From Betaproteobacteria bacterium (GTDB lineage: Bacteria; Pseudomonadota; Gammaproteobacteria; Burkholderiales; CAIKXV01), in the NCBI GenBank assembly GCA_947458265.1, contig CANGYF010000009.1, positions 66,544 to 130,543 of the forward strand: a stretch of DNA of 64,000 nucleotides, written 5' to 3'. Below the pieces are notes generated by a model that had not been told where the DNA came from, did no database searches, and was given only the letters and a program-made list of their open reading frames with translations. The stretch's first letter is position 1. Each line of letters opens with the position of its first letter. This document shows, in pieces, positions 22,318 through 45,819 of this stretch. The translations under genes were made by a program, and so were the position numbers.

Positions 22318-24723
22318 TCAGCGTCGCGCGTAGTCGAGGAACTTCTCCGGCGTCACCCGGATCGCCGCGCCGGTGGGGCAGGCGCGCACGCAGGCCGGCC
22401 CGCCGCGCAGGTCGGTGCACATGTCGCACTTCACCGCATGCTTGGCCCCATCCTTCGCCGCAGCCAGCGTCTCGCACCCTGGCTCGTCGGTCAGGCCGGT
22501 GAGCAGCCAGGAAAGCAGGCTCGGCCGGCGCCGCTTCTCCACCACCGGCACCAGCTGGATCACGCCGTACGGGCAGTTCTTCTCGCAGTTGCCGCAACCG
22601 ATGCAGGTGTCGAGGATCGTTACCTCGCCTTCGGGGCTGCGCTGGATCGCGTCCGGCGGGCAGTCCTTCATGCAGTGCGGGTTCTCGCAATGGCGGCAGG
22701 ACGTGGGCACGTGAATGCTGGCGAAGGTGGGCCCGGCCTCGCGGTCGAGCCGCGAATTGCCGTCGTGGGTATCCGCGCAGGCCTTCTCGCAGTTGTCGCA
22801 GCGGATGCACAGGCTCTCGTCGATCAGCAGCACGTCGGTGGCCTCGCCGACCCCCTGCTTCATCAGGAAGCTGATCAGGTTGCCCGGGTCCGGCTCGCTC
22901 TCGCGCGCTGCATTGGCGGCGATGCGCTCGAGCACGCGCGCCTCGACGCTCCCACGCAGCGTGTTGTTGCGCATCAGCACTTCGTTGAACGTGCGCGCAT
23001 CCAAGACGATGCTCTCGGTGGACACCGCCGCGCGCACGGTCGCCGATCGCGGCGCGTCGGACAGCAGCGCCATCTCGCCCACGTAGTTCCCGGCAGCGAC
23101 ATACGACAGCACCACCTCGCGCCCGCCCAGGGTGCGCGACACCGTCACCGAGCCGCGGCGGATCAGGTGCAGCCCATCGGCCTTGTCGCCTTCGTGGAAC
23201 AGCACCTCGCCGGCATTGAACACGCTGATGCGCGCATTGGCCACCATCTCGTCGAGGTCGGCCGCGCTGATCCACGGGGCGATATTCGCGCGCACCGCGC
23301 GCTTGAGGAACACCTCGTCGACGCGCCGGCGCACCGACTCCACGCTGCCGATCAGCTTGAGCATCGTGCGCCGCGGCGTCTCGAGCAGCACGCAACCCGG
23401 GCCCGCACGCACCGTGCTCGCGCGCCGGCGGCCCGACACCAGCCCCATCTCGCCGAAGAACTCGCCGGTACGCAGGCGCACGTCGCTGCGCTTGCCTTCC
23501 TTGTCCAGCACCTCGATCAGCACCTCGCCTGCGACGATGACGAAGAACGAATTGGAGTAGTCGCCCTTGGCGAACACCACCGCGCCGGCGGCAGGCTGCT
23601 GCATCTCGCTCTCCAGCAGCACCTCGCGCAGTTGCAGCGTGGACAGCCCGGAGAACACCGGCACGGTGCGCTGGATGCGCGCGAGCGCTCCGGCAACATC
23701 CGTCGCCGCGTGCCAGCCCGCCAGGCGTCGCTTGAGCAGCGGCTCGTCGGCGGGTTCCACCGGAAAGCCCAGGATCGACTCGACCACCTCGTAGCCCTGG
23801 TTCATCGCCTGCTTGATCAGCGGGTAGCCCCCCAGGGCACCGACGATATACAGGCCGGGCACGTTGGACTCGTAGGTCGGAGACAGTTCGGGCACCGCGT
23901 TCGGGTCGTCGTTCGGAAAGGTGACGCCGAAGCTTTCGACGAGGCGGCGCGGAGGCGTTGCGCCCAGCCGGGCGATCACCCGGTCGCAATCGATGCTGTC
24001 CGAGCCGTCGCGCGTCTGCACCCGTACGCGCAGCGCACCGGCATCCACCGCCTCGACCGCCTCGGGCCGGGTGCTGAAGCGACACTCGATCACGCCGTCG
24101 CGGATCGCGCTGGTGACCAGGTCTAGGTTGCCCTGCTTGCAACGCGTGAACTCCTCGTTGCGGTTTAGCAGTACCACCCGGTTGCCATTGGCCAGTGCCA
24201 GCGCGTTCTCGATCGCCGCATCACCGGCGCCGACCACCACGATGGTCTCGCCGACATGGGCGCCGGGATCGTCGAGCTGGTACTGCACGCGCTCGAGGTC
24301 CTCGCCTGGCACGCCCAGCCGCCGCAGGTTGCCCTGCAGGCCGATTGCCAGCACCACATGCTCGGCGTGCACCGGCTCCTGGCCCTCGATGCCGAGCACG
24401 AACGCGCCGCGGCTGCCGGTGATCGAGACCACGGTGGCGCGATGGCGCACCACGACCCCAAGCGTCGCCACCTGCTCATCCCAGGTCTGCAGGATGCGCT
24501 CGCGCTTCCCGGCAGCGAACGACAGGTCGCTGCGCAACGGCAGGATGGCCGGCTCGGCCATCACGTGCTTGCCTTTCTGGTAGCGGAAGATGGTGTGCGA
24601 GAGATGCGACTCGGATTCGAGCAGCACGTGCGACACCCCGCGGTGCGCGGCGCGCGCAGCGCACGACAGGCCGCCCGGGCCAGAGCCGACGACGGCGATC
24701 TTCACCGACACGGGGGGGCTCAC
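22318..24723 (-). CDS. Cytoplasmic fusion protein: FAD/NAD(P)H pyridine-nucleotide-disulfide-type oxidoreductase, two cyclic-nucleotide-binding domains and an NrfC/DmsB-like four-cluster [4Fe-4S] ferredoxin
   Basis: KIAVVGSGPGG and TIVVVGAGDAA are dinucleotide folds. FGEMGLVSGRRRASTVRA and VGEMALLSDAPRSATVRA are cNMP motifs. There are four Cys groups: CIRCDNCEKAC, CRHCENPHCMKDCP, CIGCGNCEKNCP and CDMCTDLRGGPACVRACP. GTG start at 24723 in a GTGA overlap with the upstream stop (alternative GTG at 24711). No signal peptide. Confidence 0.8.
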   Translation of the reverse strand: MSPPVSVKIAVVGSGPGGLSCAARAAHRGVSHVLLESESHLSHTIFRYQKGKHVMAEPAILPLRSDLSFAAGKRERILQTWDEQVATLGVVVRHRATVVSITGSRGAFVLGIEGQEPVHAEHVVLAIGLQGNLRRLGVPGEDLERVQYQLDDPGAHVGETIVVVGAGDAAIENALALANGNRVVLLNRNEEFTRCKQGNLDLVTSAIRDGVIECRFSTRPEAVEAVDAGALRVRVQTRDGSDSIDCDRVIARLGATPPRRLVESFGVTFPNDDPNAVPELSPTYESNVPGLYIVGALGGYPLIKQAMNQGYEVVESILGFPVEPADEPLLKRRLAGWHAATDVAGALARIQRTVPVFSGLSTLQLREVLLESEMQQPAAGAVVFAKGDYSNSFFVIVAGEVLIEVLDKEGKRSDVRLRTGEFFGEMGLVSGRRRASTVRAGPGCVLLETPRRTMLKLIGSVESVRRRVDEVFLKRAVRANIAPWISAADLDEMVANARISVFNAGEVLFHEGDKADGLHLIRRGSVTVSRTLGGREVVLSYVAAGNYVGEMALLSDAPRSATVRAAVSTESIVLDARTFNEVLMRNNTLRGSVEARVLERIAANAARESEPDPGNLISFLMKQGVGEATDVLLIDESLCIRCDNCEKACADTHDGNSRLDREAGPTFASIHVPTSCRHCENPHCMKDCPPDAIQRSPEGEVTILDTCIGCGNCEKNCPYGVIQLVPVVEKRRRPSLLSWLLTGLTDEPGCETLAAAKDGAKHAVKCDMCTDLRGGPACVRACPTGAAIRVTPEKFLDYARR

Positions 24724-26210
24724 TTCGCGCCCCCACGGCGCGCCGCCTGCAGCGTCGCCGCGAACTCGCGCAGCCCGGCCTGGAACGCGACAGGCTGGTA
24801 CTTCTCGTCGTCGGCCACCAGCGCGAGCAGCCGCCTGAGCCCGGGCCCGAGCTGGTCCGGCGCCACCGCCTTCTGCCGCGCAAGGAAGTCGCCAAGACTC
24901 TGCAGCGCGAACACCGCCTGTTCGGCACCGGCGTAGTCGGTGTACTGGCTGGCCAGCCCGTCGGCCACCAGGGCCTCCATCATCGCCTGCAGATCGGCGG
25001 CCGCGAAACGGTGGGCAGCGATGCGCGGCAACAGGCCGTCGATCGCCTCGTACACGGCACGCGCCTGCGCGATCGGGTCGCCGGCGCCGGCGATCGCCTG
25101 GTGCAGGCGGTCGATCTGCTTCGCCAGCGCGGCCCCGGCGTCGGCATCGACGCGACGCGCCACCAGCCGCAGCATCAGCAGGTTCGAGTCGTTCAGTCGC
25201 ACGATCCCGGGGCCGGCCTTGAGCCGGGCCGCGAGGTAGCGGTTGCCGCGCATCGACTGGTGGCACGCATGGCAGTCGAACAGCACCAGTTCCGGGAACA
25301 ACCCGTCGCGACCGCGCTGCGGGTGCAGGAAGATCGCCAGCTGCTCCTGCGAGGCCACCGCCTGGCCGATCGCCCAGGCACGCACGCCGTCCCACGTACC
25401 CTTGCGCTCGCGCCAGTCGGCGTCGATGCGGAAATGCGCCGGTCCGAGCAGGGTGAACGTGTCGAGCTCGAAGCTCATCCTCGGATGCCCGGCCGCCATG
25501 ATCCTGTGGGTGACCAGCTTCTGCGCGTTGCCGAAGTGACAGGACACGCACAGGCGTGCGCGGTCGATGTCGTTGCTGGTCGGGTACAGCCCGTGGGCGA
25601 TGTTGTCGCGGTGGCTCGCGCCGCTCTCGACGTGGCGCCGCAGCCAGCGCTCGGCCGGCCCGTGGCAGGACTCGCAGGTCACGCCCTCGGTGATCGAGAA
25701 CTCCGGTGCGCGGCGCGCCGCCGGCGCGTTGTGCGCGTGGCAGTCCAGGCATACCGCAGCGCGGTGCGCAGGTTCAGTCAGACCCATCCGCTTGACGATC
25801 GCCTGCGACTTGTCGCTGAGCAGCGTGCGATAGGCGCGCGCGTGGCGGTCGCTGCGCTGCCAGACATGGAACTCGGTCTGCAGCACGTTCGAGCCGGGCC
25901 ACGCCTCCGCCGAGCCGTGACACAGGCTGTTCGCGCAACTGGCCACGCCGAGCGTGCGCTCGGCCGCGTACTGGGGGAGCCCGCGGGCCGGGGCGGCGAC
26001 GCCCGGGACGGCTGCCACTGCACGGCCTGGCCCTGGCAGGCCACCCCACAGCGCACCCGCCACGATGCAGCCAACGATAGCCGCGGCGAACGCCAGGGCG
26101 AGCGCTCGGCTGCGGCGCGCGCCGGCAGGCAGCGCCTGTGCGCCGGGCTGTGCCGTGGTAGACGATGGTACGGGGACGGATCGACGCAATATGCGCACGG
26201 GGAACCTCAT
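24720..26210 (-). CDS. Multihaem c-type cytochrome (4 CxxCH plus 1 Cx4CH) with an N-terminal anchor/signal and a helical C-terminal domain
   Basis: Start at 26210 in an ATGA overlap with the upstream stop. Haem motifs: CANSLCH (Cx4CH), CLDCH, CESCH, CVSCH, CHACH. The N-terminal part looks cytochrome c554-like. Confidence 0.8.
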   Translation of the reverse strand: MRFPVRILRRSVPVPSSTTAQPGAQALPAGARRSRALALAFAAAIVGCIVAGALWGGLPGPGRAVAAVPGVAAPARGLPQYAAERTLGVASCANSLCHGSAEAWPGSNVLQTEFHVWQRSDRHARAYRTLLSDKSQAIVKRMGLTEPAHRAAVCLDCHAHNAPAARRAPEFSITEGVTCESCHGPAERWLRRHVESGASHRDNIAHGLYPTSNDIDRARLCVSCHFGNAQKLVTHRIMAAGHPRMSFELDTFTLLGPAHFRIDADWRERKGTWDGVRAWAIGQAVASQEQLAIFLHPQRGRDGLFPELVLFDCHACHQSMRGNRYLAARLKAGPGIVRLNDSNLLMLRLVARRVDADAGAALAKQIDRLHQAIAGAGDPIAQARAVYEAIDGLLPRIAAHRFAAADLQAMMEALVADGLASQYTDYAGAEQAVFALQSLGDFLARQKAVAPDQLGPGLRRLLALVADDEKYQPVAFQAGLREFAATLQAARRGGAK

Positions 26211-29200
26211 CGCCGGAACAGCGTGCGATCGACCTGGTCGCGCACGCGCCACGGATCGCCTTCAGGGCGCAGGTAGAGCCGTCGCTGCTCGGCCAGGTCG
26301 AGCGGGCGCGAGCCGATTCGGCCGAACACCGCCACCTGCCCGCCAGTCTCGTCGACCGCGCGGTCGCGCTCCAGCCCGCGCGACAGGGCAAGCGCAGGAC
26401 TGCGCGTGGGCCGCCAGGCAATCAGCTGCGGCCTGGGCTCCGGGCTGAAGCCGTAGAACTTCGGCTGCGTGTCCGGTGCAGTGAGCTGCACCACCTTCAG
26501 CCCGTTACGCCCGTCCGCGACGTATGCGAACAGCGACGCGTTGGTCGAGCCGACCACCACGTCGCGGGCGTCGTTCAACACACCGCCGGCAGTGAAGCGC
26601 TGGACCACCCGCGGCTGCTCCGGATTCTCGACGTCTACGATCACCAGCCCCTCGCGCCCGGCCGCGACATAGGCGTAGGTGCGCGCGACATACACGCGGT
26701 TGGCCTCTGCCATCGGCACGGTGGCGCCCTCGACGCGCCGCGGGCGCTTCACATCGGTGACATCGAGCACAACCAGCCCATCGCGCGCGGCGACGAACAG
26801 GTAGCGAAACTGCAGCGTCGCCGCGCGTGCGCCTTCGACCGGCACCACGGTGACCAGTTGCGGCTTGAGCGGGTCGTCGAGGTCGACCACCGCGATGCCG
26901 CGCTCGACGGCGACGTAGGCGTAGTGGCCGCCCATCGTGATATGCCGCGCGCCGCGCAGCGCACCGCCCGCGTCCCAGGTAAGTGCCCGGCGCAGGAAGT
27001 TGTTGCGCGGCTCGCCGTCCTGCAGCGTGTCCACGTTGACCACGATCAGGCCCTCGCGCGCATCGGAGATGAACGCGTAGTGGTAGATCGGGTGGAACGG
27101 CTGTTCCTGGTTGACCCGGCGCATCAGGTCGCCCTGGTTCTTGAACGGGGCCACCGGCTGGTTGGTGGGCAGCGCGACGCAGGTCGCCTCCGCCGAGCGC
27201 ACCCGCGTGTCCTGCCCGAGCGGCGAGAACGGCGCGCTGACGATGCGCTGCGAGAAGCCCTTGTTCGCGATCGAGGCGACGTCGTACACCACCATGCCGC
27301 CCGGGCCCTCGGCCGCGTAGAGGTATTCGCCACGCATTTGCAGGCACTCCACCCGGCCGCGGGTGCGCTGGTCGTGCGCCTCGCGCAGGCGCCTGCCTCG
27401 ATTGTCGTGCGCGGCGAACCAGTCCGGGTACGCGTAGCGGTGCAGGTAGCTGCCGATCACCGCCTGCGGCTCCTCCCACTCGGTGACCTGCACCGCCTCG
27501 ACATGGCGCTCGCTGCCGACCCACGCGTTGAAGCCGACGAAGTTCACGAAGCCAGTGCCGTGCAGCAGCAGCTGCGCCATGATGGCGTTGTTGTCGTTGG
27601 CGGCCGACAGGTGGCAATCGGTGCAGGTCTTGGTCTCGGTCTTGCGCTCGGTGTGCGCATAGTGCGGCGCGAACGCCTGGCTGGAGAAGCCGGCGGAGGA
27701 AACGGGCGGCTGCTGGATGTAGATGCGCTCGCGGTTGCTGTTGGTCGAGGACAGCAGCAGCGCCGAGCTGGAGCGGATCGGCACGATCTTGCCCTGCTTG
27801 ACCGGGCCGTGGCGGCCGAGCTGGAACACGTCGTCGCGCACCACCTGCGGGTTATAGGTGGCGTAGTTGCGCGTCGCACCACCCTCGTAGTGGAGGCGAT
27901 CGGTCTTCCAGTTCGCCTCGATCGGCAGGTGGCAGCCCGAGCAACTCGTCGTCCACGAGGTGTGGCAGGTCTGGCAGGCCATCTTGTCGTCGCCGTGCGC
28001 ACGCTCCTGCGCGGGCACGCCCGGCCCCCAGGACTGGCGATAGCTGTCGAAAGCGCCGCGCGCGGTGAGCTTGGACCGCGCCGCCTTCTCGTTGTAATTC
28101 CGGTGCCCGGGGGTGACGGTATCGCGCACCAGCGACATCTCCCACTCCAGCCCGGGGGTGAGGGTGGAGCGCTGGTAGAGCCGGCCGCCACGCCACTCGA
28201 AGCGCGCCCGCCCGTCGGGCACGCGCATCAGCGAGAGGTTGTTGCCGCCCGGGCGCGCCGCCGGGCCCGAGGTGAACAGCGTCGGGTAGCGGTCTGCGGT
28301 GCCGTGGCAGTCGGCGCACTCGATCTCGATCGCCGCCGCGACCTCGCCATAAATGTGGCCGTTGCCGTGGGCGTCCTGGGAGAAGTGGCAGTCCACGCAG
28401 TGCATGCCCACGTCGAGATGGATCGAGGACATGTGTACCGACTTGCTGAACTTCTTGGGGTCGTCGTCGGCGACGATGCGCCCGTCCTTGTCGAGCAGGT
28501 TGCCCCTGCGGTCGCGCTTGAAGACCGCGCGGAAGTTCCAGCCGTGGCCGTGGTAGTCGGCGAACTGGGTGTCCTTCAGCTTCGGGTTGAGGTCCCACAC
28601 CCGCTTCAGGAACTCGAGCGAGCCCCAGTTGCCGAGTACCGCCGCGCCCTCCGGGTTGCGGTCAAGGATGCGGCGGCGTTCGGTGTGCGACGGGTGGCGC
28701 TGCTTCTCGGGCCACATGAACGGCGCATCGGCCTCGTAGTCCCACATCGTGTAGCCGAAGAAACTGTTCACGAACACGTTCGGCTGGTGCATGTGGCACA
28801 CCATGCACTGCGAGGACGGAATCGCGCGGGTGAACTCATGCCGCAGCGGGTGGCCGCTGCGGTCGCGCGGGATCGTCGGATCGGCGCTTACGCTGGTGCC
28901 CGAGTGGCCGTGCTGTGCGTAGGGCCCGGAATGGCGCGGCTCGCGGTCGTTCGCGTAAACGACGTGGCAGCTCGCGCAGCCGGAGGAGCGGTAATCGCCC
29001 GGCTGGTCGTTGCTGCCGAGGAACCAGGTGAACGGGTCGTTCAACCGCGTCTTGGTGATGTTGATCAACGGCACCGCGATGCGCTGGCCGGTACCCGGGC
29101 CGCGCACCGACTGGCGGATATCCGGCCGCCCCGGCTCGTCCAATGTCTGCAGCCGGCCGAGCACGTTGGGCAGTCCGATCTCCGGGAACAGGCTCTGGAT

Positions 29201-29998
29201 CACCCGGCCGCCGCGCTCGAACACCCGGAACACGTCGCCCGGGGGCATCGTCTCCCAGGCCGGCAGCGGAAACAGCTGCGCGAGCACGCCCTTGGCGAGG
29301 AGGAAGGCATCGGGCTTGACCGGGTTGACAATGGTCGCGCCGATGCCGTCGCGGGTATAGGCCTCGCCGAACAAGCCGCGCTTGAACGCGAACTCCGGCG
29401 GCAGGACGCCGTTGTTGTAGGCCGCACCATTCCACAGCATCGCGCCAGTGGCCATCAGGCTGCGCTCGGCCGCCTGGATGATCGGCAGGTGGCAGGCACC
29501 GCAGGCTTCGCGCGCGACCCGGTAGTCCGACGGATTGGTGAAGCGGATGAACTCGGGGCTCTCGCGGTTGAGCAGGGTGTAGCTGCGCTCGGGCGTGGCC
29601 GAGGACGGGTAGTTCCACTCGTTCGCAAAGCGCGGCATCACGTGAGCGCGATCGAGCGCTGCACGGTAGTCGCGCATCCGGTCACCCCGGTAGTCCGAAC
29701 CTGTCGGCCGCTGCACCATCGCATCCCCGCCGTGGCAGTCGGTGCAGCCAAGAGCCACCGCCGGATTGCGATGCATGGTCGCATGGTCGGTGGCGGTGTG
29801 GCAGGACACGCAGCCGGCGGACTTGGAATACGCCTCGGCATGGGACTGCTTCGCCGGCGCGGGCGGCGCGCCGGTGAACATGATGTCCGGAGGGCTCACC
29901 GTCGGACGCGCGGTGAGGCTGCCCGCAGCCTGCGAGGCGGTCACGCCGCCGGCCAGGGCCACCGCGATGCCGACCCACAGCAGCGCCAGGGCAGCCAT
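26207..29998 (-). CDS. Decahaem c-type cytochrome fused to a C-terminal LVIVD-repeat (beta-propeller-like) domain, ~1263 aa, secreted
   Basis: Start MAALALLWVGIAVALAGGVTASQAAG (signal) at 29998. Ten CxxCH motifs: CVSCH, CTDCH, CGACH, CASCH, CMVCH, CVDCH, CADCH, CQTCH, CSGCH, CTDCH. Six LVIVD-like repeats: GMVVYDV, GLIVVNV, GIAVVDL, GLVVLDV, GLVIVDV, GLKVVQL. Confidence 0.85.
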   Translation of the reverse strand: MAALALLWVGIAVALAGGVTASQAAGSLTARPTVSPPDIMFTGAPPAPAKQSHAEAYSKSAGCVSCHTATDHATMHRNPAVALGCTDCHGGDAMVQRPTGSDYRGDRMRDYRAALDRAHVMPRFANEWNYPSSATPERSYTLLNRESPEFIRFTNPSDYRVAREACGACHLPIIQAAERSLMATGAMLWNGAAYNNGVLPPEFAFKRGLFGEAYTRDGIGATIVNPVKPDAFLLAKGVLAQLFPLPAWETMPPGDVFRVFERGGRVIQSLFPEIGLPNVLGRLQTLDEPGRPDIRQSVRGPGTGQRIAVPLINITKTRLNDPFTWFLGSNDQPGDYRSSGCASCHVVYANDREPRHSGPYAQHGHSGTSVSADPTIPRDRSGHPLRHEFTRAIPSSQCMVCHMHQPNVFVNSFFGYTMWDYEADAPFMWPEKQRHPSHTERRRILDRNPEGAAVLGNWGSLEFLKRVWDLNPKLKDTQFADYHGHGWNFRAVFKRDRRGNLLDKDGRIVADDDPKKFSKSVHMSSIHLDVGMHCVDCHFSQDAHGNGHIYGEVAAAIEIECADCHGTADRYPTLFTSGPAARPGGNNLSLMRVPDGRARFEWRGGRLYQRSTLTPGLEWEMSLVRDTVTPGHRNYNEKAARSKLTARGAFDSYRQSWGPGVPAQERAHGDDKMACQTCHTSWTTSCSGCHLPIEANWKTDRLHYEGGATRNYATYNPQVVRDDVFQLGRHGPVKQGKIVPIRSSSALLLSSTNSNRERIYIQQPPVSSAGFSSQAFAPHYAHTERKTETKTCTDCHLSAANDNNAIMAQLLLHGTGFVNFVGFNAWVGSERHVEAVQVTEWEEPQAVIGSYLHRYAYPDWFAAHDNRGRRLREAHDQRTRGRVECLQMRGEYLYAAEGPGGMVVYDVASIANKGFSQRIVSAPFSPLGQDTRVRSAEATCVALPTNQPVAPFKNQGDLMRRVNQEQPFHPIYHYAFISDAREGLIVVNVDTLQDGEPRNNFLRRALTWDAGGALRGARHITMGGHYAYVAVERGIAVVDLDDPLKPQLVTVVPVEGARAATLQFRYLFVAARDGLVVLDVTDVKRPRRVEGATVPMAEANRVYVARTYAYVAAGREGLVIVDVENPEQPRVVQRFTAGGVLNDARDVVVGSTNASLFAYVADGRNGLKVVQLTAPDTQPKFYGFSPEPRPQLIAWRPTRSPALALSRGLERDRAVDETGGQVAVFGRIGSRPLDLAEQRRLYLRPEGDPWRVRDQVDRTLFRR

Positions 29999-30077
29999 AC
30001 GCGATGCAAGCCCGGCAGGCCGGGCACCTGGCCTCTGGTTCACCGCTGCAGGGACGTGATTGGGCACCGTGGCGGCC

Positions 30078-32819
30078 TCAATAGGTGAGGATAAGGTTGG
30101 CGATGGCCGAGTACTGCCGGCTGTCGAGCGCATTGCCGTAGAGCTCGCGCAGGCCAGCCCCAGGGAACAGAACCGCGAGCGAGACGTTGATCACCACGTT
30201 CTGGATGAACAGCGGCCGGTACTGCACCGCCACCGATGCATCGTGGCCGATCATATTCGAATGCAGGCGCTGGTTACGCAGCGTCGCCAGCGACGACAGG
30301 TTGTCGAAAGCGAGCCGGTTGAGGTTGCCGATCAGCCGCACCTGCGGCGTGAGGTCCACGTCGGCACCGATGCCGATCAGGCGCAGCCCGGGGTTGGTGA
30401 AGTTCGCCTGGCCGTGCTCGCGCGAGGTGCGCAACGAAGCAAGCAGGCCGTTGCGCATCGACAGCGTGGTACCGCCCCCGCCCACCAGCGGCACCGCCTG
30501 GCGGATCCAGTAGCTGGTATCGGCGCCGGCGAACAGCGGGTTCTCCAGCACCGCGTCGAAGCCCTGCGCCTTCGCATCGAAAGGGTTGCGGTCGCCGGAG
30601 GCGTAGAGCGCGCTGGTGCGCAGCCGGATCCAGGAGAAGTCGCGCGAGACTTCGGCCGCGCCGAACCGTGCTTCGACCCGCTCGGGCTGGCCTGAGAGCT
30701 GGCCGCGGCTCACGTTACCGCTCGCCAGGTAGCCCGACAGGGACAGGTTCCAGCGGTTGTAGTGGCCGTCAGCGTTGAGGCCCAGCCAGGTAACGTCGTA
30801 GTCGTAGGGCCGACCCGAGCCGAACACCGCCGGCCGCTCGAGGAAGCCGTTGCCGTTGAAGAAGCGCGGGTTCGATCCCTCGCGGTTGCTGTTGCGCAGG
30901 ATGGTCCCCTGGGTGGTCACCCCAAGCACCGGGAAGTCCTGCCGGTAAAGATTGAACACGAACACGTCATCGTCGCGGGGGCGCTGCAGGATGTCGTTCA
31001 ACCCGCTGTTGGTGTCTTTCTCGAAGCGGCGGAACCACGCGAGGTTGTACTGGTACTGGTTATTGTCGCGGGTGCCGAACAGGCGAACCCCGAACGGCTG
31101 GTCGACGAACAGGAAACCGCGGAAATCGGAGGTGAACGGCTGCACGCCGACGCGCAGGCTGTCGAAGTCGTAGCGCTCGGACACGTCGCGCAGGTGCTTG
31201 TCGAAGAACAACTCCTGGAAGCCGACAAAGCCGTCGTTGCGGTTCGGACCGCTCACCGGGTCGATGTTGGTCAGCCGCACCTCTTCGGTCATCGTGCGGT
31301 TGAAGTTGACCACCGGCACGATCCGGTACTCGTAGTCGGGCGGCCGGAACACGGTGTTGCCCTTGATCAGGCCAAAGTTGAGGATGAGGGTCTGCGCGAA
31401 GGTCGCCTGGCGGCCGTTGCCAAACGAGCCCAGCGCACCGGGGCGCAGGGCGGACTGCGACCCGACCGGCACAGGCAGGCTGCGCGACTCGTAGAGCGAG
31501 TCCGAGATCGCGCTCACGTTGACGAACCACTCTGGCCCGAGCAGGTCCTCGAACACCGGCAGGTCGCCGCGCAGAGGGTTCGGGTTGTACGGATCCCATC
31601 GGTTGTACGGCAGCACGCCCAGTGCCTGCACGATGCGCCAGCGATCACGCACCGGGATCGAATCGCGCGGCGCCGACGGCGCGGGGCGGGCAGCCTGCGT
31701 CGGGTCGATCAGTGCGCGCCGCGGTTCGAGCGCACCGGCACCACCAGTCGGGCGACGCCGCTCGAGCGCGAGCGCCACTGGCGGGAGGTCTGGGCCACCC
31801 TGCGCCGGCGCGACACCGGGGCGCAGTGCCTCAGCCAGCCCGGCGGCGGACGCCGCGTCCGGGGCGGCTGGCTCGAGCGGCCCTCCGAGGTCGACCGGCT
31901 CCAGCGCCTGCCCGCTGCGCCGGCGGTCCACCGCCAGAACGTCCGCAGCGCCCTCGCGCCGCTGCCGTACCCAGGCCTGGTCGCCGTTGGCCCGCTGCAC
32001 GCGATACCAGTCGCCGAGGCGGCGGTCAGCCACCAGCAGCACGCCGATCTCCACCTGCGCCACGACCTCGGCGTCATCGGCCGCACGCGCCTGAAGTGCG
32101 AGCAGCGGCACCATCACCTGCAGCAGGAACGGCGCATCCTCGGGCGCTGGCAACGGTGCCGCCGGCACCGGGGCCGCTGCCGCGGCCACCGCCGAGGTCA
32201 CCCCCAGCGCGCGCGCATCCACCCAGCCGCGGCTGCGCGTCGCCGCCTTGCCTTGGCGCTCGACCTGCACCCAACTGCCTTCGCGCTGCGACGCCTGCAG
32301 CGGCTCGCCCACGACCAACCGGTCCAGTACACGGAAGCGCTCGCCGGCACCGGCGCGCAGGAGCGCCGGCTGCATCGCCTGCACCTCGACAGCCACCGCG
32401 CCAGGCAGCTCCGGGGGCAGCGCGACCAGCGCCGCCTCGCCGGTAGCGGGCGGGCCCGCCGCCGGAGCCTTTGCCCGGAGGCTACCGGGCGCAGGCCCTG
32501 AAGGCGTGGCTGCCACCCGCAAGCCGTCGGCAAACACCCAGCCCTGGGTGGCGCGACCGTCCTGCAGCCGTACCTGTGCCCAGCGGCCCTGCCGCTGCAT
32601 CACCACCGCCGGCACACCAGGCGCCCAGCCCGCGGTCTCGGGAGCGTCCTCCGAAGGTCGCTCGCGCAGCGGGGTCGGGCGCTCCACCCGCACCCGCTCG
32701 CTGGTGCCAGCCGGCGGCTGCGGCTGCGGCTGCGTCCAGGCTGGCGGCGCAACGAGCACCGCCCCGGCCAACGCAGCCGCAGCGGCAAGGCGCACGTGCT
32801 CAGAGGCCGTCGCAGACAT
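30078..32819 (-). CDS. Outer-membrane protein: signal peptide, three SH3b-like repeats and a ~560-aa predicted beta-barrel
   Basis: Start MSATASEHVRLAAAAALAGAVLV at 32819 (alternative GTG at 32795). The SH3b-like segments end in GWVFADGLRV, GWVDARALGV and AWVRQRREG. The C-terminal half has alternating amphipathic segments and ends ...AIANLILTY (terminal aromatic residue). Confidence 0.6.
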   Translation of the reverse strand: MSATASEHVRLAAAAALAGAVLVAPPAWTQPQPQPPAGTSERVRVERPTPLRERPSEDAPETAGWAPGVPAVVMQRQGRWAQVRLQDGRATQGWVFADGLRVAATPSGPAPGSLRAKAPAAGPPATGEAALVALPPELPGAVAVEVQAMQPALLRAGAGERFRVLDRLVVGEPLQASQREGSWVQVERQGKAATRSRGWVDARALGVTSAVAAAAAPVPAAPLPAPEDAPFLLQVMVPLLALQARAADDAEVVAQVEIGVLLVADRRLGDWYRVQRANGDQAWVRQRREGAADVLAVDRRRSGQALEPVDLGGPLEPAAPDAASAAGLAEALRPGVAPAQGGPDLPPVALALERRRPTGGAGALEPRRALIDPTQAARPAPSAPRDSIPVRDRWRIVQALGVLPYNRWDPYNPNPLRGDLPVFEDLLGPEWFVNVSAISDSLYESRSLPVPVGSQSALRPGALGSFGNGRQATFAQTLILNFGLIKGNTVFRPPDYEYRIVPVVNFNRTMTEEVRLTNIDPVSGPNRNDGFVGFQELFFDKHLRDVSERYDFDSLRVGVQPFTSDFRGFLFVDQPFGVRLFGTRDNNQYQYNLAWFRRFEKDTNSGLNDILQRPRDDDVFVFNLYRQDFPVLGVTTQGTILRNSNREGSNPRFFNGNGFLERPAVFGSGRPYDYDVTWLGLNADGHYNRWNLSLSGYLASGNVSRGQLSGQPERVEARFGAAEVSRDFSWIRLRTSALYASGDRNPFDAKAQGFDAVLENPLFAGADTSYWIRQAVPLVGGGGTTLSMRNGLLASLRTSREHGQANFTNPGLRLIGIGADVDLTPQVRLIGNLNRLAFDNLSSLATLRNQRLHSNMIGHDASVAVQYRPLFIQNVVINVSLAVLFPGAGLRELYGNALDSRQYSAIANLILTY

Positions 32820-34695
32820 TGGTGGCACTGGTGTCGAGGAACGGGGCGACCGGACACTGCACGTAGCGCAGGCGGGTGCCGGCGGCGCCGGGGACGATGG
32901 TGTCGGCGCGGATGCCCGCTGGCGCATTACCGATGCCGGTGGCGAGCCGAGTGCCGGCATTGGCCACGCCGAGGAAGGCGATCATGTCGTCCTGGTCCAC
33001 GCCGTCGCCGGAAATGCCGATCGCGCCTACCAGCGCCGCGCCACGGTAGATGGGCACGCTGCCGGGGAAGATCTGGATGCCGTTCTGCGCGCGCGGCAGG
33101 CCGGTACAACCGACCACGGCCGAGCCAGTCGCCGCGGCGACGATGTTGTTGAAAGACAGGTCGAGCTGCAGGCCGACGGTGAACGGACTCCACTGCGCGA
33201 ACGGCTTCGACAGCGGGCCGCTGGCCGAGCCGTTGATCCCATCGGGGAAGAACGGGCGAGCCAGGTTGCCGACCGCGCGGTTGCTGTAGGCGACGCCGTC
33301 GGACAGCGCCGCCGGATTGGCAACGAAGGCTCGCAACTGCGTGACATACGCCCCGATCGGCGAGGCCGGGTTGGGCGCGAGATAGGCGGCATCGGGCAGC
33401 GCCGCAAGGTCGGTCGCGGTGTTCGGATGCGAGAACAGCAGCGCGGTGCGCGCCTTCTGCAGCGACACATCGGTGCCGAATACCGGTGCATCGGCGGTGC
33501 GTACCAGCCCGAGCACCTCGCCGGCGGTGTCCACGATCGAGATCGTCACCTGCGCCGGCGAGCCGAGCGGGCGGCGGATCTGTGCGCGGGTGCGGTTGGC
33601 CACCCTTAGCGCCTCGGCAAGCAGCGCGACCACCTCCGCCTGGGCGAGCAGCCCGTCGGTGCCGGCACGCGGCGCGAAGCGATTGGCGTTGGCGCCGTCG
33701 ACCAGCACATAGGCACCCAGCGCCGCCAGCTCGGGCTGCGTGTCGGGCCGGTAGCCAGAGGCCGGCGTGCCGTAGGCCTCGCCGGCCACGAGCGCGGCGG
33801 CGGCGTAGCCGGCCACCGCCACCAGCGTGCCGGCGGTGCCGTTGATGCTGGCGAAGGCAGGCGCGGCGGCGGGGTTGGACAACAGCGCCTCGGAGTCGAC
33901 GAAGCGCAGGGTGCGCCCGTCAGCGGTGATCCGGTCGGCGCGCCGGTCAGCCGGCGCGGCGAAGCCGCTCGACCCAGCCACCGCGATCAGCTCGTCCAGG
34001 GCGGCGTCGACGTCATTGATGTCGAGGTCGATGCCGTAGGTGCCATCGGCGATCACGCCGATGCCACCGACCACCGTACCGTTCTTGTACAGCGGCAGGC
34101 CGCCGGGATCGGCGGCAAGCCCGAGCGGCGAGCGCTTGGGGCCGATGCTGCCGTCGGCCTGCCGGCGCATCAGGTCGGAGCAGGACAGCTGCGAGAACTG
34201 CACGCCGAACAGCGGGCCGCCCGGCTGGCCGGTCTCGCCCGGGTTGAAGTTCTGCTGCACGATCTGGCCGGCGGTGCGGGTGGTGAACGCATTGCCCTCG
34301 GATGACAGGTAGGCGCCGGTGAGTGCCTTGCTGATCGCAGCGAAGGTCGCCGGCAGCACGTTCACGCCTTCCAGCCCGCCGGAGACGCCACGCCCGCCGG
34401 AGATGTTGAACGTGGCGGCCGCGCCGCCCATGCTGAACACTGCCAGCACGTTGCCCACGCGGTCGACCACGGCGATGGTGGCGCTGGCGCCGCGCGCCTG
34501 CGCCTCGGCCACCGCCTGGCTCAGGATGCGCCCGACCTCGGCAGTGCTCAATGCGGTGGGCGTGGCGAAGCAGCCGCCCGTGCAGCCGCCGGAGGCACCC
34601 GGCGTGCCGCCGTCACCACCGCCACCGCCGCCACAGCCGGCGAGCAGGACAAACAGCAGCACAGACAGCATCCGACGTAGACCGGTCGCACTCAT
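32800..34695 (-). CDS. Lipoprotein with two tandem GlcG/HbpS-like (DUF336, haem-binding/'haem-degrading') domains
   Basis: Start MSATGLRRMLSVLLFVLLAGCGGGGGG (lipobox LAGC) at 34695 in an ATGA overlap with the upstream stop. Domain 1: ATIAVVDRVGNVLAVFSM...GGLPLYKNGTVVGGIGV. Domain 2: ISIVDTAGEVLGLVRT...SLQKARTALLFS...VPIYRGAALVGAIGISGDGVDQDD. Confidence 0.7.
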   Translation of the reverse strand: MSATGLRRMLSVLLFVLLAGCGGGGGGDGGTPGASGGCTGGCFATPTALSTAEVGRILSQAVAEAQARGASATIAVVDRVGNVLAVFSMGGAAATFNISGGRGVSGGLEGVNVLPATFAAISKALTGAYLSSEGNAFTTRTAGQIVQQNFNPGETGQPGGPLFGVQFSQLSCSDLMRRQADGSIGPKRSPLGLAADPGGLPLYKNGTVVGGIGVIADGTYGIDLDINDVDAALDELIAVAGSSGFAAPADRRADRITADGRTLRFVDSEALLSNPAAAPAFASINGTAGTLVAVAGYAAAALVAGEAYGTPASGYRPDTQPELAALGAYVLVDGANANRFAPRAGTDGLLAQAEVVALLAEALRVANRTRAQIRRPLGSPAQVTISIVDTAGEVLGLVRTADAPVFGTDVSLQKARTALLFSHPNTATDLAALPDAAYLAPNPASPIGAYVTQLRAFVANPAALSDGVAYSNRAVGNLARPFFPDGINGSASGPLSKPFAQWSPFTVGLQLDLSFNNIVAAATGSAVVGCTGLPRAQNGIQIFPGSVPIYRGAALVGAIGISGDGVDQDDMIAFLGVANAGTRLATGIGNAPAGIRADTIVPGAAGTRLRYVQCPVAPFLDTSATNVCDGL

Positions 34696-36428
34696 CGGTG
34701 AACTCCCTTCGCGCGCAGCGCCGCCAGCACCTCTGCCGCCGCGCTCTCGCGGGTGCCGTGGAAACCGTGGCACAGCGCGCACTCGGACCGTACCTTGCCC
34801 TTCTCCGCACGCGCGCCCACATGGCACTCGCGGCATTCGCGCACGCCAGGCATCGCCACATCGGCGGCACTGCGCGAGCGCTCGACCTGGTGGCAGTCCC
34901 CGCACTTGGCCGTCGCATGGCTCGCATGCGTGAAGCTTGAGTACGGCATCCACGCCTGCGTGACCCGCACAGGCGCGACGTCCCAGCGCGTGGGCCCGCC
35001 AGCCGGATCGCGCGCGCGCAGCACCTCGTGGCATGTGGAACACACCGCGCGCGTCTCGAACAGCTCGCGCAGCGCCAGCTCGGCGCGGCGGTCGGCCGAG
35101 CCAAGCGACGCAGAACGCTCCAGCGGCGTGGAGTCGGCGCCCGGCCGGGCGCGCGCCGTCGCACGTTCCTCGGTCAGCGTGCCGGCGTAGAGGTGGCGCG
35201 CGTAGTAGTCGCGCAGCATCGGCAGCATCGCCTCGACCCTGCCGTGCGGCACCTGCCGCGTCGCCCCCGGCTCGAAGGTGAGGGCGTGGCAGGACTGGCA
35301 GTGTCGCTCCATGGTGACCGGCGCGAAGCGCCGCCCGTCGCGTTCCGGTTCGTGACAGCTCGCGCACTCGAGGACCTCGCGCCGCTGCGGCCCGCGGATG
35401 CCTTTCGCATCAAGGTGGATCTCGTGGTTGAACTTCAGGTTGGAGCGCTCGCGCGGCGGCGGGACGTCATTCAGGCGCACGCGGCGCACCTGCGGCGGCT
35501 CGCCCGGGTCGAGCAGCGACAGCCGGAACTCCGGATGGTCGCGCGCGAAGTCGACCACCTTGCCCGACTGTGCCTGCCCGGCCGTGCGGCGGATATCGCG
35601 ATGGCAGTCGGCACAGAACGCCTGCGAGAACGGCTGCGCCTGCGGGCCCTTGTGGTCGCGATGGCACTCGGCGCAGCGGGTCGCAGCGAAGCGCTCTCCA
35701 TCCGGGCCGGTGAGTTCAGGGTGCGGCACGTGGTCGCGGATGCCCTTGTGGCACTCGAGGCAGGCGCGGTCACGCACCTGTACGAACGGCAACTCGTGGC
35801 AGGCGCGGCACTCGAAGGCCGCGGCCTGGTGCGCGTTCATGAGCGGGCCCGGGTCCCATGACTGCTGCATGCGATCCGCCCCCTCCCGCAAGCGCTGCGC
35901 GTCGGCGGCCGAGGGCGTACCGACCCAGGCCGCCGCGATCCCGCCGGGGCCGAACAGGTCGGGCGCGGCAGGCAGCAGCAGGAACGGCACCAGGATGCCG
36001 AAGAACATCAGGTAGGACAGCGTCCGGCGCCACGATCTCGCCGGCGGCAGCAGCACCTGCTGCGCCTCGCGGCCAGCGTCGGCGGCCAGCCGCGACGAGG
36101 GCTCGATACGCAGCGCGAGCGCGGCGGCGTCGGGCGGCGGATCGACGGTGATGCGAAACGGCCCGATGTCGATACGGTCGCCGGGCACGATACGCTGCGC
36201 ATTGACCACCCGGCCGTTGACCTCGAGCTCGCCGGAGAGGCTGGCGATCGTCGCCTCGTCCCCCGATACCGTGATGCGCGCATGCTCGAGCAGCACGCGC
36301 GGATCGGGCAGGTGCACCTGGCAGCCGGTACCGCGCCCCACCAACAGCACCGCCCCGGCGACACGGCGCGCGACACGCACCGGCTGGCCGTGTCGTCCGG
36401 GGGTGACGTAGGTGAGCTGGGTCTCCAT
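34692..36428 (-). CDS. FHA-like domain, single TM helix and periplasmic decahaem cytochrome c
   Basis: The N-terminus LLVGRGTGCQVHLPDPRVLLEHARITV...LEVNGRVV...GDRIDIGPFRITV is FHA-like. TM helix: LSYLMFFGILVPFLLLPAAP. Ten CxxCH motifs: CRACH, CLECH, CAECH, CADCH, CASCH, CQSCH, CSTCH, CGDCH, CRECH, CALCH. Confidence 0.8.
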   Translation of the reverse strand: METQLTYVTPGRHGQPVRVARRVAGAVLLVGRGTGCQVHLPDPRVLLEHARITVSGDEATIASLSGELEVNGRVVNAQRIVPGDRIDIGPFRITVDPPPDAAALALRIEPSSRLAADAGREAQQVLLPPARSWRRTLSYLMFFGILVPFLLLPAAPDLFGPGGIAAAWVGTPSAADAQRLREGADRMQQSWDPGPLMNAHQAAAFECRACHELPFVQVRDRACLECHKGIRDHVPHPELTGPDGERFAATRCAECHRDHKGPQAQPFSQAFCADCHRDIRRTAGQAQSGKVVDFARDHPEFRLSLLDPGEPPQVRRVRLNDVPPPRERSNLKFNHEIHLDAKGIRGPQRREVLECASCHEPERDGRRFAPVTMERHCQSCHALTFEPGATRQVPHGRVEAMLPMLRDYYARHLYAGTLTEERATARARPGADSTPLERSASLGSADRRAELALRELFETRAVCSTCHEVLRARDPAGGPTRWDVAPVRVTQAWMPYSSFTHASHATAKCGDCHQVERSRSAADVAMPGVRECRECHVGARAEKGKVRSECALCHGFHGTRESAAAEVLAALRAKGVHR

Positions 36429-36434
36429 CGCCGG

Positions 36435-37289
36435 CTACCAGAAGTAGAACACCGACACCACGTGCGCAATCAGCGCAGCGATGGCACCGAAGGACAGCGG
36501 CACGTGCAACAACAGCCATACCCGCATCGCCGCGCGCAGCTGCAGGTCGCGGCGCGCGCGCGCCAGCAGTTCGCGCTTGCGCACCATCGCCGCGAGCAGC
36601 CGCTCGCCCAGTCGTACCTGCTCTGTCGAGAGCTTCGGCGCGAGTGCGGCGGGCAACCGGGTACAGGCCTCGCGCGTGGGGCAGCGCACGCGCTCGCCGC
36701 GCAGCTCGCGCAGCAGCCCGCCGCCCACGCGCGACTGGCGCGCCCGCATCACCAGCGCGTTGACCTCATCGGGCAGGTTCATCGCCAGCGCCTCGCACTC
36801 GCGGTCGATCTCGCCGACCTTCAGGACGAGCGTGTCGATGGTGTCGTCGCCGAGGTTGGCGGTCACCAGCGCCGGGTAACGCAGGTAGACGAGCACCCCG
36901 TACACGCCGCTCGCCGATACCGCCAGAACCAGTACCCAGGCGAGCGTATGTACGTTCCAGCCCAGTTCGAAGCCGGCGTGCAGGGTGGCAACCACCAGGA
37001 CGGCACCGCCGAGGTACACGTGAGCGGAGGTCCAGCCCTGCACGGTGCCGAGTCTGGAGCCGTAGCGACGCTTGCGGATGCCCAGCAGCATCAGCCACAG
37101 CATCAGCAGCGCGGCGATAGTGCCCAGCGTGTAGCCAAGCCAGGTGCCGCCGTAGTGCTTGGGGTAGCGCGGCGTCGGGTCGATCCAGAGATACGCGACC
37201 GTGGCAACCACGACCAGACACAGCGCCAGCTTCAGATAGCGGGCGCGCCGGTACTCGAGCAGCGACTGGTGGTGGCGCGAGGCGAGCAT
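36435..37289 (-). CDS. Integral membrane protein (5 predicted TM helices) with two H-x13-H helices; putative di-haem b-type transmembrane electron carrier
   Basis: TM3 is SAHVYLGGAVLVVATLHAGF and TM5 is LLLHVPLSFGAIAALIAHVV. Each has two His exactly 13 residues apart. ATG at 37289 is preferred; the longest ORF starts at 37361. The stop lies 6 nt before the FHA-cytochrome start. Confidence 0.6.
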   Translation of the reverse strand: MLASRHHQSLLEYRRARYLKLALCLVVVATVAYLWIDPTPRYPKHYGGTWLGYTLGTIAALLMLWLMLLGIRKRRYGSRLGTVQGWTSAHVYLGGAVLVVATLHAGFELGWNVHTLAWVLVLAVSASGVYGVLVYLRYPALVTANLGDDTIDTLVLKVGEIDRECEALAMNLPDEVNALVMRARQSRVGGGLLRELRGERVRCPTREACTRLPAALAPKLSTEQVRLGERLLAAMVRKRELLARARRDLQLRAAMRVWLLLHVPLSFGAIAALIAHVVSVFYFW

Positions 37290-37412: not shown

Positions 37413-38225
37413 TCAGCGCGATGGCCTGGCAGCCGTCGCCGCTTCGAGCGGGGCCACCGGGGTGCATCCGGGGCATCCCGGCAGGGCGAACTCGAACATG
37501 CCAGGCGCGCGCTCGACGCCCGTCTCGCGCAGCAGCGGCAGCAACTGCTCGCGCACCCCCGGCGCCACCGACGCGCGCAGGTACGCCTGCTCCAGCCGCG
37601 CCTCCCGCCACGCAGCCTCCCCCGCCAGTTCGAGGTCCCCTCCGCGCGTGACCAGCCGCGCACGCGCCGAACCACCGTGCGCATCGACCTCGATCCGGTA
37701 ATCGCCGAGGACGATACCCGGCAGGTGGCGCGACCGCGCTTCGGACCAGTCGATACTCGCCTGCACCCGCCAGCCGCCGCGCTCGTGCGCGAGCGCCTGC
37801 ACCTGGAGCCGCGGCCGCCCGGCCAACGCGAGCGCCGCGGTATGCGGCCACAGCGCCACCAGCGCTTCAGCCGGGAGTGCCAGCTCGAACGGTGCTGCGG
37901 TCAGCGTGCCCACGCCCAGTTCGACCGCGACGTCCCGCGCGTCGAGCTGCAGGACGAGCGCCAGCACCGGGCGCAGGCCCGGCAGCGGGCGTACGCGCCA
38001 TTGCACTGGCCAGGAAGCGATCGGGACACCCGCGGGCGAGCGCCACTGCAGTCGGCCCGCGCCGTGCCAGAGGCCACCGCGCGCCTCCAGCAGCCGCAGC
38101 TGACCGGCAGAACGCGTGGCCAGCGCGCGATCGAGCCAGGTGGCCGGCGCGAGCAGGACCAGGGCCAGCGCCAGCACGACGATGGCGCAGCCCGCGCGCA
38201 GCAGCAGGCGATCCACGGTCAGCAA
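37413..38225 (-). CDS. gspN: Type II secretion system protein N
   Basis: 270 aa with an N-terminal TM helix, then LEARGGLWHGAGRLQW, typical of GspN. It is the last gene of the gspG-N string. Confidence 0.75.
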   Translation of the reverse strand: MLTVDRLLLRAGCAIVVLALALVLLAPATWLDRALATRSAGQLRLLEARGGLWHGAGRLQWRSPAGVPIASWPVQWRVRPLPGLRPVLALVLQLDARDVAVELGVGTLTAAPFELALPAEALVALWPHTAALALAGRPRLQVQALAHERGGWRVQASIDWSEARSRHLPGIVLGDYRIEVDAHGGSARARLVTRGGDLELAGEAAWREARLEQAYLRASVAPGVREQLLPLLRETGVERAPGMFEFALPGCPGCTPVAPLEAATAARPSR

Positions 38226-38240
38226 CCCTCGCCCGGCGCT

Positions 38241-42332: not shown

Positions 42333-42396
42333 GCCGCCGCAATCGTGGCCGCAACCGTGGCCGAACTCGTGACCGAACTCGGGGCGCAGGCGCCGC

Positions 42397-45812: not shown

Positions 45813-45819
45813 CTGCGCC

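Follow-up and report, generated by a model that had tools for sequence, protein, structure and literature searches.

What would a forkhead-associated (FHA) domain do when it is joined, across the inner membrane, to a periplasmic multihaem cytochrome? This question is raised by a 64,000-nucleotide stretch of Betaproteobacteria DNA (contig CANGYF010000009.1; hereafter the window), in which a minus-strand open reading frame (ORF), 34692..36428, codes for a 578-aa protein with an FHA domain, one transmembrane (TM) helix, and a decahaem cytochrome domain. The ORF lies in a run of minus-strand genes, and its third-codon-position GC content (GC3), 0.88, identifies it as a genuine gene. The reading that we favor, with a probability of roughly one half, is that the cytochrome is the inner-membrane-anchored, periplasm-facing subunit of a conserved transmembrane electron-transfer module, and that its FHA domain serves as a phospho-independent docking or assembly module; the docking or assembly role is suggested because the phosphothreonine (pThr) pocket is degenerate while the apical loops are strongly conserved. 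The regions of the protein are as follows.

36099..36428, minus strand: FHA domain, predicted to be cytoplasmic (residues 1-110), assigned by Pfam, AlphaFold2 (AF2), Foldseek, profile alignment, and residue statistics
36027..36098, minus strand: cytoplasmic linker (residues 111-134), poorly conserved (mean pairwise identity 0.34) and ending in basic R-S-W-R-R
35949..36026, minus strand: single TM helix, predicted N-in/C-out (residues 135-160), unusually well conserved
34692..35948, minus strand: periplasmic decahaem c-type cytochrome domain (residues 161-578 and the stop codon), with CxxCH motifs spanning residues 207-554

The segment at residues 135-160 is the sole hydrophobic segment in the protein, and the AF2 model shows a helix at residues 132-159, preceded by linker residues (125-130) with a predicted local distance difference test (pLDDT) score of <50. 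Four Lys/Arg residues occur in the N-terminal flank of the helix and none in its C-terminal flank, as expected under the positive-inside rule, and no signal peptide was found at the N-terminus; haem attachment to c-type cytochromes happens outside the cytoplasm. Because of these three features, the FHA domain is predicted to lie on the cytoplasmic side of the membrane and the haem domain in the periplasm, which is the topology given in the original prediction, an earlier reading of this gene from the window sequence.

Ten CxxCH motifs, at residues 207, 223, 252, 272, 355, 377, 463, 509, 532, and 550, use 20 of the 21 cysteines in the protein; in 20,000 shuffles of the sequence, the mean number of motifs was 0.035 and the maximum was 2. 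The predicted order of one TM helix followed by ten haem motifs therefore stands, whereas the description of these motifs as uniformly closely spaced does not, as neighboring motifs are separated by gaps of 16 to 86 residues and there are ~42 residues of periplasmic sequence for each haem. As to the proposed c3/c7/NapC-like character, the Pfam models Cytochrome_C7, Cytochrom_c3_2, and Cytochrom_CIII all match above their cutoffs, but the NapC/NirT/CymA model (PF03264) has no match at E≤1, and the first CxxCH motif is at residue 207 whereas the helix ends at residue 160. Membership of the MtrA/DmsE family (TIGR03508) was also rejected, with a score of 24.9 bits against a cutoff of 192.2.

The ten CxxCH motifs are invariant in alignments of homologues, and each is intact in 143-147 of the 147 top representatives of an exhaustive profile search. 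Besides these motifs, ten His residues are invariant across 27 homologues, i.e., one per haem, a number that would fit bis-His ligation of all ten haems. Mean pairwise identity is 0.59 in the FHA domain, 0.62 in the TM helix, and 0.655 in the haem domain, compared with 0.32-0.34 in the linkers; based on these values, the FHA domain is under constraint comparable to that of the haem domain and far above that of the linkers. Within the TM helix, R135, L137, Y139, L150, and P153 are invariant in 120 sequences, and this high conservation suggests specific helix packing.

Residues 29-89 matched the Pfam FHA model (PF00498) at 29.0 bits in the whole protein and 33.0 bits when residues 1-115 were used (gathering score: 20.7), and this model matched all 28 cytochrome-family members examined. 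The Yop-YscD_cpl model (PF16697), with 23.8/27.7 bits on the window cytochrome, fell below its cutoff of 33.2; across the same 28 members, it matched every protein alongside FHA, and its best E-value (3.5e-12) was better than that of FHA. In the AF2 model, which was built on 120 homologues and has a mean pLDDT of 79.7, residues 1-110 form 11 strands with pLDDT 89-97. Foldseek alignment of this region against the PDB returned 47 matches at E≤1e-3, all 47 of which are FHA domains, including OdhI, GarA, FhaA, Ki67, DgcB, EmbR, Rv1747, MDC1, and KIF13, with a probability of 1.00 and, for single-domain FHA chains, a TM-score of ~0.6-0.78 on the target. The hidden Markov model (HMM) and the structural model thus both return FHA, the identity first read from a few motifs, and residues 1-110 are predicted to adopt a genuine FHA fold. 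The conserved residues G14, G31, R32, L40, D42, R44, H49, A50, and G89 are located in or beside loops at predicted strand ends, and most of them fall in what are the peptide-binding loops of canonical FHA domains.

All of the FHA motifs quoted in the original prediction are present in the window protein (G31-R32, V45-L-L-E-H49-A-R-I52, N71-G72, and G83-D-R-I-D-I-G89). The residues of a canonical pocket are those equivalent to R70, S85, N86, T106, and N107 of Rad53 FHA1. Across the 140 representatives (out of 147 analyzed) that bear an FHA domain, G31 is found in 140, R32 in 133 (95%), and H49 in 109 (78%). We aligned a profile of 28 N-terminal FHA domains to FhaA and GarA (E 1.6e-7 to 7e-6); in this alignment, the G-R pair of FhaA/GarA falls on G31-R32 of the family, and V-S-R-R-H falls on V-[A/L]-L-x-H, such that the canonical pThr-contacting Ser corresponds to L46 in the window protein. 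Replacement of this Ser, as originally proposed, extends to the family, in which the position is occupied by A (69), P (14), L (13), S (10), R (10), or G (8) among the 140 representatives. Compared with S-[T/L]-N-G of FhaA/GarA, the family loop has two fewer residues, with the canonical [T/L]-N falling in the family's deletion, and in the 140 representatives the position that faces the canonical Asn holds G, A, or S. The pThr pocket therefore appears degenerate across the family, with Gly-Arg and His kept, Ser lost, and the Asn loop shortened. N71-G72, which had been taken for the FHA Asn, instead aligns with a later V-N-x hairpin of FhaA/GarA, and DSSP assignment of the AF2 model shows it as a two-residue turn between strands 68-70 and 73-75; it is most probably a structural beta7-beta8 'VNG' hairpin rather than the peptide-contacting Asn.

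The fusion is widespread. A word-indexed search identified 313 hits with 45-52% identity over the full length, nearly all with FHA, YscD_cpl, and c3 Pfam domains; the named hits are annotated as 'cytochrome c3 family protein' from Betaproteobacteria or Burkholderiales metagenome-assembled genomes (MAGs). The exhaustive profile search identified 1081 clusters (50% identity) at E≤1e-30, and 68 GTDB species carry the cytochrome gene, almost all of them uncultured Burkholderiales/Betaproteobacteria with a few Vicinamibacteria and one Steroidobacteraceae. A survey across genomes, which had been proposed when the fusion was first noticed, thus shows a conserved family. Ten CxxCH motifs are present in 139 of the 147 representatives. 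Six others have nine, of which four carry a CQQS[GR]CH motif (P0263, P0342, P0361, and P0365) and two carry another CX3CH or CX4CH motif; locus L067 has CATGGCH. The CX4CH motif is probably the tenth haem site in members with nine CxxCH motifs, and published 'nonahaem' cytochromes may consequently bind ten haems.

An FHA domain is present in 140 of the 147 representatives. Four (~3%; P0285, P0291, P0348, and P0379) genuinely lack it and consist of a short N-terminus, the TM helix, and ten haems; P0348 represents an FHA-less cluster of 20 members on contigs of up to 597 kb. Three FHA-less cytochromes have in common an N-terminal E-I-x-x-L-x-x-P-x-x-G-R-R, and locus L074 is also among the FHA-less loci. 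At locus L056 (10140-11714), the FHA-coding part is out of frame in one MAG, reflecting a frameshift or an assembly error. We found no link between loss of the FHA domain and loss of any other component or domain, and the FHA-less lineages keep the long form of the neighboring membrane protein. Since these lineages keep the operon, the FHA domain seems dispensable for keeping the system together, and we regard it, on these comparisons, as accessory rather than indispensable. Retention of the whole operon also means that the FHA partner is not deducible from co-loss.

The operon in question spans 22318-37289 on the minus strand, with start/stop overlaps of 4 nt at three gene junctions. Besides the cytochrome gene, the following features belong to it or, for the first, adjoin it.

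37413-38225, minus strand: gspN, last gene of a type II secretion system (T2SS) cluster, which precedes the operon in transcription order
36435..37289, minus strand: 284-aa inner-membrane protein with five TM helices (5-TM) and two W-x3-H-x13-H motifs (in TM3 and TM5), a putative di-haem b cytochrome
32800..34695, minus strand: HbpS-like repeat protein (PF03928, Pfam) with a lipoprotein-type signal, whose start overlaps the cytochrome stop by 4 nt
30078..32819, minus strand: 913-aa putative porin of the outer membrane, with SH3_3/SH3_4 domains at its N-terminus (Pfam)
26207..29998, minus strand: large cytochrome, 1263 aa, with 10 CxxCH motifs and C-terminal LVIVD beta-propeller repeats (Pfam LVIVD and c3/c7)
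24720..26210, minus strand: cytochrome c554-like protein, 496 aa, with 4 CxxCH motifs, 1 CX4CH motif, and an N-terminal hydrophobic anchor or signal (Pfam Cytochrome_C554)
22318..24723, minus strand: soluble cytoplasmic flavo-FeS protein, 801 aa, with flavin adenine dinucleotide (FAD)/NAD(P)H, tandem cyclic nucleotide monophosphate (cNMP)-binding, and poly-[4Fe-4S] domains

We used TBLASTN to align the window proteins to 68 loci. The 5-TM membrane protein adjoins the cytochrome in 65 of these, and the remaining components are present as follows: the HbpS-like protein in 60, the porin in 55, the LVIVD cytochrome in 54, and the c554-like and flavo-FeS proteins in 49 each, with most loci that lack the flavo-FeS gene being truncated contigs. 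The order of the seven genes is the same wherever the contig is long enough, in ~50 GTDB species (L002-L058 and L073); the porin part is missing in L001 and L003. Four loci (L061, L064, L067, and L075) contain only a trio, in which the flavo-FeS gene is directly upstream of the membrane-protein gene, followed by the cytochrome gene. Based on these minimal loci, the trio would be the core of the system and the porin-cytochrome part an extension. Our literature searches found no description of the extended seven-gene form.

Several further observations concern the operon and its surroundings. The porin of the window has three N-terminal bacterial SH3 domains, and in many other loci the TBLASTN match is confined to the C-terminal (barrel) part; the L073 porin (706 aa) has no SH3 domains, and these domains vary independently of FHA loss. 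The HbpS-like lipoprotein, a fixed operon member, contains four stretches that match the HbpS-like/GlcG haem-binding domain (PF03928). A promoter and terminator scan of 21.5-38.5 kb identified 0 promoter-like sites, and terminator-like sites were not clearly above shuffle expectation. Long antisense ORFs also occur, e.g., one of 1307 aa at 26165-30088 on the plus strand, opposite the LVIVD cytochrome gene; we interpret these as artefacts of the ~70% GC content rather than as genes because GC3 supports the minus-strand frames. A complete T2SS cluster (37413-48517) is directly upstream, with gspG-N on the minus strand and gspD-E-F on the plus strand, such that its minus-strand part is co-oriented with the operon. 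In L073/L074 and 21-27 loci, a cytochrome c maturation (ccm) operon holds the upstream place instead, and GspN was detected in 3 of the 68 loci, not always adjacent; the adjacency of the T2SS and the operon may thus be lineage-specific. In Shewanella, the T2SS is needed for placing outer-surface cytochromes.

Both neighbors named in the original prediction, an H-x13-H membrane protein and a FAD/cNMP/FeS protein, are therefore encoded in the operon. In the membrane protein, all four His residues of the two HX13H motifs are invariant in 44 homologues, and some homologues have weak precomputed hits to PF01292 (cytochrome b561); the protein probably holds two stacked b haems. Between TM4 and TM5, at residues ~150-260, a cytoplasmic helical insert of ~110 aa is modelled with pLDDT 87-97, above that of the TM helices, and the TM2-TM3 loop, R-K-R-R-Y-x-S...G-W-T-S-A-H, is almost invariant. 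The flavo-FeS protein has no TM segment. Pfam, NCBIfam, and PDB sequence matches divide it into three regions: a YpdA/TrxR-like FAD/NAD(P)H domain (residues 7-298), tandem cNMP-binding domains in the arrangement known from PKA-R or PKG (residues ~356-586), and a HycB-like poly-[4Fe-4S] ferredoxin domain (residues 632-794). A flavin domain, tandem cNMP domains, and a poly-ferredoxin make an unusual combination in one protein, and the cNMP domains suggest that electron flow is gated by cAMP or cGMP.

On the favored reading, the core would consist of the soluble NAD(P)H-type flavo-FeS protein, the 5-TM HX13H protein, and the FHA-decahaem cytochrome, which are taken to work together because of their synteny and because the TM helix is conserved. 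In the seven-gene form, the HbpS-like lipoprotein, the putative porin, and the LVIVD and c554-like cytochromes would extend this core to a trans-envelope conduit. Electrons could pass between the cytoplasmic NAD(P)H, FAD, and FeS centers, the membrane pair of b haems, the periplasmic decahaem wire, and the porin-cytochrome part. We leave the direction two-way, with outward flow, of which NOX/FRE and MsrQ-Fre are examples, as the thermodynamically easy one: electrons leaving NAD(P)H for the outside would go downhill, helped by the membrane potential. The partner of the FHA domain would be a conserved one at the cytoplasmic face, either the helical insert of the membrane protein or the flavo-FeS protein, and docking to it would stabilize or modulate the complex rather than being indispensable. 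A phospho-independent role is favored because the pocket is degenerate, the operon encodes no kinase or phosphatase, all members tested match YscD_cpl, and the FHA-TM-periplasmic layout is recurrent. The YscD/PrgH/GltG scaffolds and the phospho-independent enzyme binding of GarA are precedents for such a role, in which both the phospho-independence and the partner are inferred. Docking to the flavo-FeS protein, which was among the original proposals, thus fits this reading as a possible contact but not as an obligatory one, given that FHA-less loci (L060 and P0348/L073) keep all seven genes. A bolder version, which we consider doubtful, is a quinone-independent, cyclic-nucleotide-gated 'NOX-like' conduit for extracellular electron transfer (EET) that runs from cytoplasmic NAD(P)H by way of the poly-FeS flavoprotein, a novel di-haem b membrane protein, and the FHA-anchored decahaem wire to the outer-membrane porin-cytochrome, with the degenerate FHA domain as a cytoplasmic clamp recruiting or positioning the soluble reductase at the membrane module.

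Several points weigh against the favored reading. The FHA-less lineages (L059/L060, P0348/L073, P0285, P0291, and P0379) retain the membrane protein, the other operon genes, and the flavoprotein, and FHA-less L073 encodes a complete 812-aa FAD/cNMP/Fer4 protein. The membrane protein of the window has no Pfam or NCBIfam match and no significant relative in the PDB (the best Foldseek E-value was 0.2, and profile comparison against the PDB returned nothing), and the TM region of its model is predicted with modest confidence; its assignment as a di-haem b cytochrome is accordingly a motif-based one, and its relation to ferric-reductase domains (FRDs) or cytochrome b561 stays at the level of motifs because no PDB fold or profile matched. 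For the FHA domain, a single-sequence alignment to DgcB, differing from the FhaA/GarA profiles, puts N71 at the canonical Asn, and a phosphate or acidic ligand would still be compatible with the invariant Arg and with conserved loops that are rich in Arg.

The same loops form part of the argument for canonical signalling, in which the FHA domain would bind pThr on a partner of a Hanks-type kinase encoded elsewhere and the conduit would be under kinase/phosphatase control, as had also been suggested at the outset. The true FHA fold, the retention of G31 (140/140) and R32 (133/140) and usually of His, the conserved and basic apical loops, and the kinase links of the nearest structural neighbors (GarA, OdhI, and FhaA) are all consistent with this explanation. 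It is nevertheless improbable, as Ser is found in only 10 of 140 representatives, the neighboring residue is Leu, and the S-T-N-G loop is shortened with loss of its Thr/Asn. Moreover, no kinase or PP2C, for which a search had been proposed at the outset, is encoded in the seven-gene operon or among the major window ORFs scanned with Pfam, and when upstream ORFs in 65 loci were clustered for a conserved kinase or phosphatase, the only recognizable recurrent clusters were ccm genes and antisense artefacts, the ccm operon being the one recurrent upstream neighbor identified. The regulatory domains that are visible in the system are those that bind cNMP. Another use of the fold would be self-association or ring assembly as in YscD/PrgH, or binding of an anionic lipid or nucleotide, rather than of an operon-encoded partner. 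All 28 members tested match the model of the YscD cytoplasmic domain, the N-terminus has weak similarity to the scaffolds GltG and TagH, and the conserved FHA residues are Arg-rich; this explanation is still rather unlikely, because nothing points to oligomers, the window protein is below the PF16697 cutoff, and the conserved operon encodes no secretion-system partner.

Two further explanations assign the FHA domain a lesser part. If the domain were decaying, or merely topogenic and without a specific function, its absence from 4 of 147 diverse representatives that keep the operon would be readily understood; its retention in 140 of 147, its conservation near that of the haem domain and far above that of the linkers, and its invariant loop residues make this highly improbable. 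Alternatively, the FHA domain could be a side feature of a quinol dehydrogenase or quinone reductase of the CymA/NapC/NrfH type that acts through its TM helix. The gross layout is the same (one N-terminal TM helix and a periplasmic multihaem domain), the TM helix is conserved, and such a function was argued for the 'NHC' cytochrome of Ferrigenium in a preprint (10.64898/2026.01.22.701106). We consider it unlikely for the window protein, which has no NapC/NirT HMM match at E≤1, carries ten haems rather than four or five, and has its first haem motif 47 residues past the helix, beyond a post-TM segment with an identity of 0.32; the membrane step is more plausibly ascribed to the adjacent membrane protein, which has four invariant His residues and is encoded beside the cytochrome in 65 of 68 loci.

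Comparison with known systems brings out the same mixture of features. The FHA-TM-periplasmic domain order is shared with YscD/PrgH/EscD of type III secretion systems (T3SS), GltG of gliding motility, and TagH of type VI secretion systems (T6SS), all of which are trans-envelope scaffolds, and the FHA domains of YscD/PrgH, like that of the window protein, are without canonical pThr-binding residues. The N-terminal NCBIfam matches of the cytochrome to GltG and TagH are weak. Unlike in the YscD type, the periplasmic part of the cytochrome is decahaem rather than ring-building, and PF16697 is below its cutoff; no T3SS genes were found in the operon or the window, in which the neighboring secretion genes are of type II, and the conserved operon contains no secretion or motility genes. 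GarA/OdhI and FhaA are the best structural and profile matches of the window FHA domain (Foldseek E 5e-6 to 2e-5). They are soluble regulators whose R/S/H/N pocket is intact and which have kinases as partners, whereas the window FHA domain is tethered to the membrane and has neither the Ser nor the Asn loop. The GarA FHA surface reportedly binds metabolic enzymes without their phosphorylation, a result ascribed to Wagner et al. in 2019.

The cytochrome resembles CymA/NapC/NrfH in having a single N-terminal TM anchor and a periplasmic multihaem domain but differs in its ten haems, long post-TM spacer, and extra cytoplasmic domain. The operon as a whole recalls NOX/FRE and MsrQ with Fre, given the two HX13H motifs on TM3/TM5, the cytosolic NAD(P)H flavoprotein, and the idea of electron transfer across the membrane; its flavoprotein, in contrast, is a separate poly-FeS protein that binds cNMP, and a multihaem cytochrome takes the place of acceptor or donor. 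A putative porin and large multihaem cytochromes are features shared with MtrCAB/MtoAB and PCC3, and PCC3 also has an HX13H inner-membrane protein. The haem numbers of the operon cytochromes (10, 10, and 4-5) fall well short of the PCC3 medians of 34 and 21, and PCC3 has no FHA, HbpS-like, LVIVD, or flavo-FeS components.

The fusion was first described as unusual, which is a fair description, but it had already been reported. Inner-membrane proteins that carry two HX13H motifs and occur beside multihaem cytochromes were reported by He et al. 2017 (PMC5566968) and compared there with ferric-reductase domains. The trios in Supplementary Table 6 of that study comprise a 9-haem cytochrome (544-556 aa), a membrane protein (308-310 aa), and a redox protein (796-805 aa) and come from Gallionella ES-2, Gallionella sp. 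SCGC AAA018-N21, and the Gallionellaceae of a nitrate-dependent Fe(II)-oxidizing (NDFO) enrichment. They were taken to be porin-less, and a part in EET was on that account considered unlikely. In Table 1 of Hoover et al. 2023 (PMC9900912), cluster 403, a 'Forkhead-associated protein' with 10 haem motifs, occurs in 27 of 87 Gallionellaceae genomes of iron-oxidizing bacteria (FeOB). The 'NHC' of Ferrigenium straubiae (bioRxiv, 10.64898/2026.01.22.701106) has a cytosolic FHA domain, one TM helix, and nine haems, lies beside a 5-TM and a [4Fe-4S] protein, and showed expression in each of the conditions tested; that preprint states that FHA was previously unreported with multihaem cytochromes and proposes a CymA-like role.

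Judged from the published descriptions, the Gallionellaceae and Ferrigenium cytochromes are like that of the window, with an FHA domain, one TM helix, 9-10 haem motifs, and a length of ~545-590 aa. Based on a comparison of sizes, motifs, and neighbors, their clusters are also alike: a 5-TM protein that carries two HX13H motifs is next to the cytochrome, and an FeS protein of ~800 aa is encoded as well. Our family profile retrieves a 553-aa subgroup with 9 CxxCH motifs and a CX4CH motif, encoded in a trio in the order FAD/cNMP/Fer4 protein (805 aa), inner-membrane protein, and multihaem cytochrome with a DUF1924 neighbor. By size, motifs, and neighbors, the fusion is thus not new and corresponds to the 'Forkhead-associated' cytochrome of Gallionellaceae and to the NHC of Ferrigenium. 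In contrast to the published trios, the flavo-FeS gene of the window is five genes away, and extra HbpS-like, putative porin, LVIVD decahaem, and c554-like genes are present. The published accounts do not jointly analyze the pThr pocket, the FAD and cNMP domains of the flavoprotein, and the HX13H motifs; to them our analysis adds the family-wide degeneration of the pocket, the very large size of the family, and the seven-gene operon in most of the species retrieved.

The FHA-decahaem family is large and found mostly in uncultured bacteria, and it bears on how electrons pass the inner membrane and periplasm in iron-oxidizing and other electroactive Betaproteobacteria. We know of no cytoplasmic protein-interaction module on a multihaem cytochrome other than this FHA domain. 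In contrast to the published porin-less view, a putative porin and large cytochromes are encoded in the operon of the trio in ~50 species, which makes a complete trans-envelope pathway a testable hypothesis. Isolates that carry the trio (Gallionella ES-2 and Ferrigenium) make experiments feasible, and identifying the binding partner of the FHA domain would show how the conduit is assembled or regulated.

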